From the sequence record NC_105619.1: a stretch of DNA of 48,980 bases, one strand, 5' to 3'. The position numbers were made by a program, and so were the translations under genes. The notes under the pieces were generated by a model. It did no database searches, was not told where the DNA came from, and saw nothing but the letters and a program-made list of their open reading frames with translations. Numbering within the stretch: position 1 is the first letter of the stretch; every line of letters starts with the position of its first letter. Of the stretch, positions 45,266 to 47,401 are shown one piece after another. Origin of the DNA: a phage.

Positions 45266-45355
45266 TCCCCTACACCAACAAACGAGGAATCACTAATGAA
45301 ACACTTAATTTGCATTGAAACGCCTAACGATGAATACACTCTTCACGGAATATGA

Positions 45356-45742
45356 ATGTTCAAAGGTCACTACATGACAGCAAGCATTCATGATTCGCGT
45401 CTATGCGATGGCGATCTGGTGATTACATCAAAAGAAGTAAATCCGTACATTATGCAGAATCTTGGCGATAACGAATATATGGCCTACGGCTGCAACGCGG
45501 TGTACAAGCATATCAAGATCCGCAAGCGTGTCGTGCGTGCATTCAAGAAGATTGCAATGAAATACTGGAAGATGAGCAAGAAGGACGCCGGACGCTGGGC
45601 GCGCAATGTTGCTGACTCGTACTTCTATCGTAACGGTGAGTCATGCTACTTCCTGATCGATGAAATTATGGAAAACTACGGCGGCGACTTCGGTCAGTGT
45701 AACTTTGACGATTGGGCTGACTATGAGATCAGTTGTTGGTGA
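45356..45742 (+). CDS. hypothetical protein
   Basis: 128-aa ORF preceded by 19-codon mini-ORF with RBS GAGGAA (ATGAATG junction). Confidence 0.45.
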   Translation: MFKGHYMTASIHDSRLCDGDLVITSKEVNPYIMQNLGDNEYMAYGCNAVYKHIKIRKRVVRAFKKIAMKYWKMSKKDAGRWARNVADSYFYRNGESCYFLIDEIMENYGGDFGQCNFDDWADYEISCW

Positions 45743-45785
45743 TAGCACGAATTGCTAAAACTTGCTCAAGGGCATTTGTTAGAAT
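45741..45785 (+). promoter_or_regulatory. early promoter module
   Basis: GATAGCACGAATTGCTAAAAC + 22 nt + TAGAAT (TGt extended); arms AAGGGCA/TGCCCTT. Confidence 0.55.
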
Positions 45786-45825
45786 GCCCTTCGTTGAGTT
45801 AAGCAACCAATCAGAGGAATAAATC

Positions 45826-46437
45826 ATGGATAAAATCACAATTTGGGGCCAGACAATCAACCTGTTTCTCGGTACTCGCCGCGTGGCAATCTTTGACTTC
45901 GACGGAACACTGAGTGACGGCTCAAAACGTCTTCACCTGCTACCGACGAAAGATTTGCACTTGACGGAAAGCTGGTCTGAGTTCAACCGCGCGGCAATAT
46001 TTGACAATCCTATACGTAGTACGATTGATGTGATGAACTCTATGTTTGCCGCTGGGTATCATGTGATTATTTTAACCGGGCGAAGCGATGAGGTGCGTTA
46101 CGCATCTGAGTTATGGCTTAAGCATCACGGCGCGCGATATGACTACTTAGTCATGAGGCCGCATACCGACAACCGGAAAGACACGGTAATGAAAGAAGAG
46201 GCGGTGCGCGCGATCGGCATTGATAACATTCTGGCAGCCTGGGATGACTCACCGAAAATTATTCCATTATTCCGATCGCTTGGAATAACCACGTATGCCG
46301 TAGTTGACTATGGCGATAACGTTCACGATCATTTAAAATCTCACGGGGTGGATGGGGTTTGCAATCATGAACCATCTGAGCCGCTACCGCCATTTGGCGA
46401 TAAAATATGCATTAAGTGCAAGGAGTTATTGAAGTGA
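45826..46437 (+). CDS. HAD-superfamily phosphatase (polynucleotide-kinase 3'-phosphatase-like)
   Basis: Motif I ..VAIFDFDGTL.. (DxDGT), motif II ..IILTGR.., later ..AWDDS.. Confidence 0.6.
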   Translation: MDKITIWGQTINLFLGTRRVAIFDFDGTLSDGSKRLHLLPTKDLHLTESWSEFNRAAIFDNPIRSTIDVMNSMFAAGYHVIILTGRSDEVRYASELWLKHHGARYDYLVMRPHTDNRKDTVMKEEAVRAIGIDNILAAWDDSPKIIPLFRSLGITTYAVVDYGDNVHDHLKSHGVDGVCNHEPSEPLPPFGDKICIKCKELLK

Positions 46438-46545
46438 ACCTGTACGAATTTATTGCAGCACATCCGGTATTGACGGTTATCATCCTGTTAATCATCAATC
46501 ACACTATCATCAATGTGGCAAAATTATTTTTAGGGAGATACTAAC

Positions 46546-47118
46546 ATGAAAACAGCTATCATTTTAAACGGCGCACCTGGAGCGGGAAAAGACACTATCG
46601 GATGCATCCTGGCTGACACTTACGATCACGTAGCCTTGCGCAGCTTCAAAGCGCCAATGTTTGAGATTGCCCGGGCAATCCTTGGTGAAGCTAACTACGA
46701 GTATTTCATGTTCTTGTATGAGGACCGTCGATATAAAGAAGAGCCAGCATCCATCCTGAACGGTAAAAGCCCACGCCAGTTTATGATCTGGATTAGCGAG
46801 GAAGTCATCAAGCCGCAGTTCGGAAATCGATTCTTCGGTATGCGAGCGGAAAGCAAGGTGAAAGAGTCAAACTCCCTTTCGGTATTTACTGACGGTGGAT
46901 TCAAAGATGAGATCTTGCAAATGATTGAAGGCGATATCCAGGTCAAACTATGCCGCATACATCGCAACGGCTGCAACTTCGATAACGACAGTCGAGATTA
47001 TATCTACCTGGATGATATGATCGGTGTCAACGGTTATCAGGAATGTGACTTCTTCTCTGTCGAAGGTCATCCAGAAATTACCGCTCAGCACATAGCCGCC
47101 ACGTTCATCAATAAATAG
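46546..47118 (+). CDS. P-loop nucleotide/nucleoside-monophosphate kinase-like protein
   Basis: Walker A ..LNGAPGAGKDT.. at N-terminus, as in small phage dNMP/polynucleotide kinases. Confidence 0.55.
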   Translation: MKTAIILNGAPGAGKDTIGCILADTYDHVALRSFKAPMFEIARAILGEANYEYFMFLYEDRRYKEEPASILNGKSPRQFMIWISEEVIKPQFGNRFFGMRAESKVKESNSLSVFTDGGFKDEILQMIEGDIQVKLCRIHRNGCNFDNDSRDYIYLDDMIGVNGYQECDFFSVEGHPEITAQHIAATFINK

Positions 47119-47158
47119 CACGAATTGCTAAAACGTCGATGTGGTGATTTGATATAGT
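47114..47158 (+). promoter_or_regulatory. early promoter module
   Basis: AATAGCACGAATTGCTAAAAC + 22 nt + TATAGT; arms GTCGATG/CATCGAC. Confidence 0.55.
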
Positions 47159-47191
47159 TACCTCATCGACAACCAAGAGAGACAAATCGAA

Positions 47192-47401
47192 ATGATGGTA
47201 TCAACTGATAAGTTTTTTACTTGCACTAAAACTTCTGAAGTATTCGAACTGGTTCATACTGATAATGGTGATTTCATGCATGACGGTTGCTACGTTTTTA
47301 TCGAAGTGAAAGAAAGCGACTATGACGACGGAGTTTATTACAACCCGGCAGTTAACACTCAGTTTTTTACCCCGATCGAGGAAGATGGAGAAGAGGCATG
47401 A
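47192..47401 (+). CDS. hypothetical small acidic protein
   Basis: 69 aa, ~16 Asp/Glu, few basic residues. Confidence 0.45.
   Translation: MMVSTDKFFTCTKTSEVFELVHTDNGDFMHDGCYVFIEVKESDYDDGVYYNPAVNTQFFTPIEEDGEEA

Follow-up and report, generated by a model that had tools for sequence, protein, structure and literature searches.

The sequence analysed here (the window) is the whole of record NC_105619.1, a phage DNA of 48,980 bp which, judged by its matches, is an essentially complete Tunavirus (T1-like) genome. The subject is a block in which a gene for a 203-residue HAD phosphatase is followed by a gene for a 190-residue P-loop kinase. The two open reading frames (ORFs) lie, both on the plus strand, exactly where an initial annotation of the sequence had placed them, and the phosphatase-then-kinase order as separate genes was confirmed, as were HAD motifs I and II (FDFDGTL at residues 23-29 and ILTGR, within IILTGR at residues 81-86) and the Walker A motif of the kinase (GAPGAGKDT, residues 9-17). 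That annotation had seen in the pair a likeness to a split polynucleotide kinase-phosphatase (Pnkp). The likeness held for the phosphatase half, which belongs to the Pnkp clade, and failed for the kinase half, of which only the P-loop could be aligned; the description of the pair was right about the genes and overlooked a small ORF at 46434-46544 and the variable tail of the HAD protein. The family and fold assignments, the intact catalytic residues and the genetic coupling of the two genes carry the reading that we favour and to which we give somewhat better than an even chance: the pair would be a module for the salvage of DNA precursors (deoxynucleotides) during host-DNA breakdown, and not a split end-repair enzyme. 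Nucleotide-pool remodelling, one of the roles suggested at first, is the best fit to the evidence. The features of the block are collected in Table 1.

Table 1. Features of the HAD/kinase block and related elements, in window coordinates
Feature	Coordinates	Strand	Details
Promoter-like element upstream of the block	45744..45789	+	AGCACGAATTGCTAAAAC motif (45744-45761), 22-nt spacer, -10-like part, inverted repeat
Inverted repeat GGGCAT/ATGCCC	45770-45789	+	in the upstream promoter-like element
Extended -10-like TGtTAGAAT	45777-45785	+	in the upstream promoter-like element
HAD Shine-Dalgarno AGAGGA	45813-45818	+	
Stand-alone Pnkp-type HAD (DxDxT) phosphatase gene	45826..46437	+	203 aa; from ORF, Pfam and PHROG
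HAD motif I FDFDGTL	45892..45912	+	residues 23-29; D24 = T4 Asp165, D26 = T4 Asp167
HAD R35			= T4 Pnkp R176 (hhalign)
HAD motif II ILTGR	46069..46083	+	IILTGR = residues 81-86; T84 = T4 Ser211, R86 = Arg213
HAD motif III region DNRKDTVMKEE	46168..46200	+	D119 = T4 Asp254, K123 = T4 Lys258
HAD motif IV DD	46243..46248	+	D140/D141 = T4 Asp277/Asp278
Variable C-terminal HAD tail	46354..46434	+	GVCNHEPSEPLPPFGDKICIKCKELLK; last ~27 residues, C-x-H...PLPP.G...C-x2-C, zinc-knuckle-like look
Small hydrophobic ORF	46434..46544	+	36 aa, MNLYEFIAAHPVLTVIILLIINHTIINVAKLFLGRY, GTG start; GTGA overlap with HAD stop; stop 1 nt before kinase ATG
Kinase Shine-Dalgarno GGGAG	upstream of 46546	+	
Putative T4 gp1-type deoxynucleoside monophosphate kinase gene	46546..47118	+	190 aa, starts MKTAIILNGAPGAGKDT; PHROG 139
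Kinase P-loop GAPGAGKDT	46570..46596	+	residues 9-17, GKD type; aligns with gp1 GVKRSGKDT
Next promoter-like copy	47117..47158	+	AGCACGAATTGCTAAAAC motif and TGaTATAGT; starts within kinase stop codon
Seven promoter-like elements (AGCACGAATTGCTAAAAC-type motif)	25796, 30868, 37504, 43571, 45224, 45744, 47117	+, +, -, +, +, +, +	

Profile searches, which the initial annotation had proposed as a check, assigned both proteins with matches far beyond chance, the phosphatase to PF25109 and PHROG 415 and the kinase to PHROG 139. For the phosphatase, the score against Pfam PF25109 (HAD_PNKP) was 58.8 bits (cut-off 27.6), and PHROG 415, which consists of stand-alone proteins, was matched at 226 bits (E 6.6e-67), compared with 71.7 bits for PHROG 505, to which full-length Pnkp belongs. 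The likeness to the 3'-phosphatase domain of T4 Pnk, claimed at first from the motifs, is borne out by these scores and by the comparison of the HAD family profile with T4 Pnkp in hhalign, which gave a probability of 97.4% over T4 residues 151-298 only (the T4 query agreed with T4 records at 100% identity). When the PDB was searched by sequence, the matches were likewise Pnkp1 (4xrp), from the RNA-repair complex of Capnocytophaga, and the phosphatase domain of T4 Pnkp (5uj0). The equivalents of T4 Asp165, Asp167, Ser211, Lys258 and Asp278 are kept. Among 40 homologues, D24, D26, R35, T84, R86, D119, K123 and D140/D141 are invariant or nearly so, with strict invariance at D24, D26, G27 and T28 and at D115, N116, R117, K118, D119, K123, E124 and E125. 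In T4 Pnkp, Asp165 is the nucleophile, Asp167 the acid-base catalyst and Asp278 a Mg2+ ligand, and Ser211 and Lys258 contact the phosphate (PMC3592404). Since these catalytic residues are conserved, the HAD protein should be an active, Mg2+-dependent DxDxT acyl-phosphatase of the Pnkp clade.

Compared with T4 Pnkp (pseT; 1LTQ, 5UJ0) and Capnocytophaga Pnkp1 (4XRP), the HAD protein is stand-alone and of PHROG 415 instead of 505, and it adds a 14-residue family-specific insert after motif I, in which H45, S49, W50 and F53 are invariant. An invariant Ser142 follows the DD of motif IV, where T4 (Arg279) and Pnkp1 carry Arg. A beta-hairpin is predicted at the N-terminus. The Cys/His tail at the other end is optional, being present in ESCO41, doubled in P0140 (245 aa) and missing from the T1 orthologue (176 aa), and it was modelled with low confidence (pLDDT 43-70). 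The proteins P0103 and P0140 are listed with the tail module, and other HAD relatives have unrelated C-terminal extensions.

The four insert residues and the Ser in place of Arg279 would make a pocket unlike that of canonical Pnkp, which speaks for a different reading of the phosphatase. The HAD protein would then be a mononucleotide phosphatase (a 5'-/3'-nucleotidase of the class B acid-phosphatase kind) that, together with the kinase, reshapes the pool, for instance by breaking down one nucleotide in particular, or an anti-defence hydrolase of a nucleotide immune signal. In keeping with this, homologues are annotated 'acid phosphatase', the P1 gene pap belongs to the stand-alone HAD family, and host-derived deoxynucleoside monophosphates (dNMPs) and the depletion of deoxynucleoside triphosphates (dNTPs) matter in phage defence (bioRxiv 10.64898/2026.01.15.699771). 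The score of the HAD protein against Pfam PF03767 (class B acid phosphatase) lies just at the gathering threshold. However, T1-like DNA is canonical, with post-replicative methylation only (by methyltransferases), so that there is no nucleotide obviously to be excluded; no member of the HAD family has an assayed substrate; and the m6-dAMP-sensing system PUA-Cal-HAD still restricts phage Bas12, known here only as a member of the Tunavirinae. We consider this reading unlikely, although it stands first among the competitors. The narrower idea that the module conceals m6-dAMP, a danger signal, from PUA-Cal-HAD was disfavoured, Bas12 being restricted all the same.

An exhaustive HMMER search of 1.84 billion cluster representatives returned 6,706 relatives of the HAD protein, which itself has no kinase domain. 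The best 150 are mostly stand-alone proteins of 140-170 aa, and canonical Pnkp architectures of about 300 aa appear in the list only from about E 1e-17. On this distribution the HAD protein is a member of a large stand-alone sister family, and not half of a recently split Pnkp. In a phage collection, 1,622 records match such a phosphatase-only protein of about 150-200 aa. Many of these records are labelled 'polynucleotide kinase' or '3'-phosphatase, 5'-polynucleotide kinase', which overstates their content, only the phosphatase domain being there. Dozens of genomes near-identical to the window carry the public labels 'polynucleotide kinase', 'acid phosphatase', 'dNMP kinase' and 'P-loop NTPase' for the two genes.

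The alternative first offered for the second gene, a small phage dNMP kinase, is supported by PHROG 139 ('deoxynucleoside monophosphate kinase', E 5.4e-46) and by the GKD type of its P-loop. The T4 gene 1 kinase (gp1; sequence checked against GenBank X03016) matches PHROG 139 with an E of 1.8e-65 over the profile region common to the window kinase, and the closest fold is that of 1DEK, the structure of this same T4 enzyme. The two kinases have in common a GxxxxGKD P-loop (GAPGAGKD in the window, GVKRSGKD in gp1), and all of the 46 homologues of the window kinase that were compared keep G14, K15 and D16; in contrast to this GxGKD-T pattern, Pnk carries GxxGxGKS. Outside the P-loop the relationship is distant, with 13% identity overall, and the window protein is about 50 residues shorter than gp1. 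Pfam gave no family above threshold and P-loop-level matches only (nSTAND3, AAA_18), neither a single-sequence nor a profile search of the PDB gave a significant match, and NCBIfam gave no match. It is the PHROG match, the fold and the P-loop that support the assignment of the 190-residue protein as a probable gp1-type dNMP kinase. The substrates of T4 gp1 are dGMP, dTMP and hydroxymethyl-dCMP, and the T5 kinase, a relation by annotation, accepts all four dNMPs (PMC10653934); given the canonical phage DNA, a T5-like specificity would be expected of the window kinase.

The kinase also bears on the split-Pnkp reading. In that reading the HAD protein removes 3'-phosphates or 2',3'-cyclic phosphates, the P-loop protein phosphorylates the 5'-OH ends of broken tRNA, RNA or DNA and a host ligase seals them, as a counter to anticodon nucleases or to others leaving 3'-phosphate/5'-OH ends. 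The HAD protein is indeed of the Pnkp clade with its catalytic residues complete, in T4 Pnkp the phosphatase uses the same active site to heal ends with a 2',3'-cyclic phosphate (PMC3592404), and P-loop kinases of the superfamily can in principle gain new acceptors. Nevertheless, the alignment of the kinase profile with T4 Pnkp is confined to the P-loop (residues 1-27). The essential residues of the T4 kinase are Lys15, Ser16, Asp35, Arg38, Asp85 and Arg126, of which Asp35 activates the 5'-OH and Arg38 holds the acceptor 3'-phosphate (PMC2831316). The stretch after strand 2 of the window kinase (S33-F34-K35-A36-P37-M38) contains no Asp or Arg, and beyond the P-loop no counterpart of Asp35, Arg38, Asp85 or Arg126 was aligned. 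With only the P-loop aligned and these essential residues without counterpart, the protein does not qualify as a Pnk-type kinase.

The gene content agrees with this result. Neither a DNA polymerase nor a ligase is found among the 78 annotated features of Shigella phage phiL, a relative 95% identical to the window, and the remark of the initial annotation that no ligase lies nearby therefore stands; the partner ligase of T4 Pnkp and Pnkp1 is thus absent as judged from the phiL annotation, and ARAGORN found no tRNA genes in the window. In addition, the host ligase RtcB needs 3'-phosphate/5'-OH ends, so that healing would be counterproductive (established knowledge, cited in PMC3592404). The proposed role in end healing against anticodon nucleases is accordingly disfavoured, and we hold a split Pnkp to be quite improbable.

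The gene order by itself does not reproduce that of T4 Pnkp, which is one polypeptide with the kinase N-terminal, whereas the window has two genes with the phosphatase first. Mammalian PNKP has the architecture FHA-phosphatase-kinase, with a HAD phosphatase. Its phosphatase-kinase order is like that of the window pair and of the fusion proteins P0212 and P0229 described below, a likeness drawn from established knowledge and not from a sequence comparison. Its kinase is of the Pnk type and acts on DNA 5'-OH ends (PMC2831316), whereas that of the window is of the gp1 type.

The linkage of the two genes was surveyed in 80 viral contigs with a gene for a kinase relative (identity as low as 43%), in which the HAD gene was sought by tblastn. 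It was found in 74 of them, always upstream and on the same strand, at distances of 3 nt to 2.1 kb. In some 20 of the loci a distance of 3 nt separates the aligned ends of the two genes, which are in different frames, and overlapping stop and start codons are implied. Such overlapping pairs are also present in Kagunavirus K1ind1 (Guernseyvirinae), directly 3' of a 'DNA repair exonuclease' gene, and in Aeromonas phage phiAS7 (Autographiviridae), where the pair comes behind the genes for exonuclease and endonuclease. Compared with the kinase profile in hhalign, the partner protein of phiAS7 gave a probability of 100% (E 1.4e-43).

Moreover, two of the best 150 HAD cluster representatives, P0212 (403 aa) and P0229 (461 aa), are natural HAD-kinase fusions. 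Both have an N-terminal HAD domain, a linker with the common motif G-x-F-x-GPELHG and a complete kinase, which matches the kinase profile with an E of 1e-64 in P0212 and 2e-57 in P0229. P0212 is encoded on three contigs that come from two samples and reach 60.7 kb in length (loci L089 8001-9212 and L090 3908-5119), and its neighbours are of a phage-like kind: RdgC, NinH, an Rv2179c-like exonuclease, a PAPS-reductase-like protein, a Dam-type methyltransferase and a Prim-Pol. A third candidate, the 243-aa apparent HAD/kinase chimera P0219, was discarded as probably the product of a deletion or of misassembly. Gene fusions are classical evidence for two activities in one pathway. The conserved synteny in three phage lineages and the fusion proteins thus place the HAD protein and the kinase in one pathway and support a linkage beyond adjacency in one genome, as was supposed when the two genes were first thought to act together.

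These data bear on three of the alternatives. The HAD and kinase genes might be functionally unrelated early genes, held together by block ancestry only, as their variable spacing with small genes or an HNH endonuclease in between, the non-adjacent pair of phage TLS (gp09 and gp14; PMC11447400) and the solitary occurrence of the HAD gene in P1, Krischvirus and PTXU04 and of the kinase gene in Maculvirus and Vequintavirus would allow. The same-order overlapping pair in three unrelated lineages and the two diverged fusions with a common linker motif, one of them read from two independent samples, argue against it, and we rate it the least probable of the readings. For the HAD protein as a nucleotidase, the coupling is awkward, since a 5'-dNMP phosphatase would undo the work of the dNMP kinase to which it is coupled or fused, in a futile cycle. 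The strongly conserved phosphatase-then-kinase order, found again in the fusions, would suit a split Pnkp.

A further reading takes the HAD protein and the gp1-type kinase as a dedicated two-step enzyme, either a complex or a fusion, acting on 3'-phosphorylated deoxynucleotides, for example from 3',5'-bisphosphates (pdNp) to dNMP to the diphosphate (dNDP), or on 3'-dNMPs (dNp) with a non-canonical 5'-phosphorylation. In its stronger version the gp1-like scaffold would have turned into a true 5'-OH polynucleotide kinase. We regard this reading as doubtful. If true, the enzyme would carry out, at the level of mononucleotides, an analogue of the end healing of polynucleotides with another kinase scaffold, and host-DNA breakdown in such phages would run through 3'-phosphate products.

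The gene neighbourhoods in other phages point to DNA precursors rather than RNA repair as the probable context of both families. In Krischvirus vB-Eco-KMB43 a stand-alone HAD gene (L084 4058-4474) directly follows nrdA, a DNA-cytosine methyltransferase gene and nrdB, and about 4 kb downstream, next to an RNA ligase, the same genome has a canonical Pnkp (pseT). Since both kinds of HAD protein are kept, they are not redundant and apparently have different roles, which weighs against a split Pnkp. The stand-alone HAD genes of PTXU04 and Vibrio phage 1.070.O adjoin exonuclease-like genes; distant matches to true Pnkp of about 290 aa lie near RNA ligases, as in Streptomyces phage Wakanda. The kinase occurs without the HAD gene in a Vequintavirus, beside genes for thymidylate synthase, ribonucleotide reductase and a DnaQ-like exonuclease, and in a Maculvirus, after exonuclease and endonuclease genes. 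This placement of the kinase family among nucleotide-metabolism genes also argues against a split Pnkp. In a search with the kinase, records labelled as Campylobacter phages (D1 and A138) gave match identity, coverage and record length close to those of the E. coli Vequintavirus RudolfGeigy, which suggests that they are mislabelled or contaminated.

The genes known in Drexlerviridae as 'PNK' and 'dNMP kinase' (T1, TLS gp09/gp14, KanT1 and the BASEL phages) are the window's own genes, whose homologues in other Tunavirus genomes are 90-99% identical. Phages T1 and TLS break down the host chromosome and recycle its nucleotides, and they have no polymerase of their own (PMC11447400). In Drexlerviridae that lack an SH3 gene, the DNA repair exonuclease is followed most often by 'polynucleotide kinase' and 'dNMP kinase', and the KanT1 study proposed that the two extend the replication module and boost nucleotide supply (PMC13164509). 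A retron Eco2 paper was dismissed as a source on Drexlerviridae PNK, the enzyme being there a reagent only. For T4 Pnkp, the phosphatase turns over 3'-dTMP at 24 per second and does not hydrolyse ribonucleoside 3'-monophosphates (PMC3592404), which brings deoxynucleotide-level substrates into the range of the Pnkp clade.

In the salvage reading, the block would be expressed as one early transcription unit whose two enzymes feed host-derived deoxynucleotides into phage DNA synthesis. We infer the substrates, the order of the steps with the direction of flux, and any physical interaction of the HAD protein with the kinase, as follows. Nucleases would first break down host DNA, and the HAD protein would strip 3'-phosphates from deoxynucleotide substrates, namely blocked 3'-phosphate DNA ends, dNp and pdNp. 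Removal of the 3'-phosphate would let exonucleases proceed and would make the products usable as 5'-dNMPs. With ATP, the kinase would then convert the 5'-dNMPs released by exonucleases to dNDPs, which host NDP kinase would turn into dNTPs.

Several points weigh against this reading. The weakest part is that we know of no source of 3'-phosphorylated DNA products in T1 infection, and it is for this reason that the HAD protein as a nucleotidase or anti-defence hydrolase is kept as the main rival. The known exonucleases of E. coli and its phages give 5'-phosphate and 3'-OH products. E. coli possesses Adk, Gmk, Cmk and Tmk of its own, so that a phage kinase would amplify a step and would not supply a missing one. 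To our knowledge, neither of the two proteins nor any close homologue has been characterised biochemically. The pair is not adjacent to the exonuclease genes in the window. Finally, the kinase falls below the threshold of Pfam DNMK (PF21448), with two relatives reaching E 0.0026, and its profile aligned with gp1 alone at 76.8% in hhalign, over the N-terminal 74 columns only.

The genome in which the block lies resembles its relatives closely. A megablast search with positions 45300-47400 found 120 phage records, the best matches being 91-96% identical and all from Tunavirus/Drexlerviridae; foremost among them are the Shigella phages phiL and Shfl1 and the Escherichia phages IME18, LeonhardEuler, JMPW1 and ADB-2. 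The annotation of phiL includes a terminase, structural genes, an Erf/RecE-like recombination module, a primase and a helicase, together with two DNA methyltransferases and a 'DNA repair exonuclease'. Just 5' of the HAD start (window 45820-45827), phiL has about 208 extra nt with an annotated 68-aa ORF. Its HAD protein is annotated as only 136 aa long, with one gap in the alignment, which may reflect a frameshift or a sequencing error. An interruption of the HAD gene in phiL was considered and rejected, the extra 208 nt or so lying just upstream of the start codon.

The block is flanked by two members of a set of promoter-like elements. When up to 3 mismatches are allowed, the window has seven copies of the 18-mer AGCACGAATTGCTAAAAC, where chance would give 0.09, and each has an imperfect palindrome, AGCAC(G/T)AATTGCTAAA (AGCA-N5-TGCT). 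All but one of the seven are followed, at a fixed distance of 22-23 nt, by a TAnAnT hexamer, which in three of these six cases has a TG one base upstream; TATAGT, TAGAAT, TATGAT and TATATT are seen among these -10-like hexamers. Most copies also have a short GC-rich inverted repeat around or beside the hexamer. These features suggest a family of phage promoters, which may be a regulator-dependent class combined with terminator-like hairpins. A generic scan for sigma-70 promoters and terminators yielded no signal above background in the region and did not call the elements. The centre of the palindrome would fall near -42, a position typical of class II activator sites, and the TTGCTA of the palindrome is too far from the -10 hexamer for a normal -35. 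If the elements are promoters, the HAD gene, the small ORF and the kinase gene would form one transcription unit, of which the copy at 47117 would mark the end.

The gap of 108 nt between the HAD and kinase genes in the window is filled by the small ORF, which has an AAGGAG 7 nt 5' of its GTG (46434) and is annotated as a CDS in phage LeonhardEuler. Its peptide is conserved in 11 Tunavirus loci, whereas the other two reading frames vary, which indicates that the ORF is probably real; its predicted product is probably a true small membrane protein. At a locus with a kinase of only 57% identity a diverged counterpart is visible. In T1 proper (among loci L003, L005 and L006, of T1 and close relatives) the gap measures 487 nt and contains an ORF, the T1 record placing a homing endonuclease there, and an HNH endonuclease between PNK and dNMP kinase is likewise named in a figure legend of the KanT1 study (PMC13164509). 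This suggests that the ORF in the T1 gap is a mobile insertion inside the module.

The two genes and the idea that they serve nucleotide supply were already known, and two papers discuss the pair (PMC13164509, PMC11447400). What is added here is fourfold: the two halves of the hypothesis are separated, a widespread mis-annotation is corrected, and the synteny across lineages and the fusion proteins are described. The label 'polynucleotide kinase' wrongly implies a capacity for RNA repair. The conserved coupling makes the host-DNA recycling chemistry of T1-like phages testable with two small soluble proteins. As phage defences sense host-derived dNMPs and deplete dNTPs, enzymes with which a phage manages its nucleotide pool are also relevant to the conflict between phage and host.

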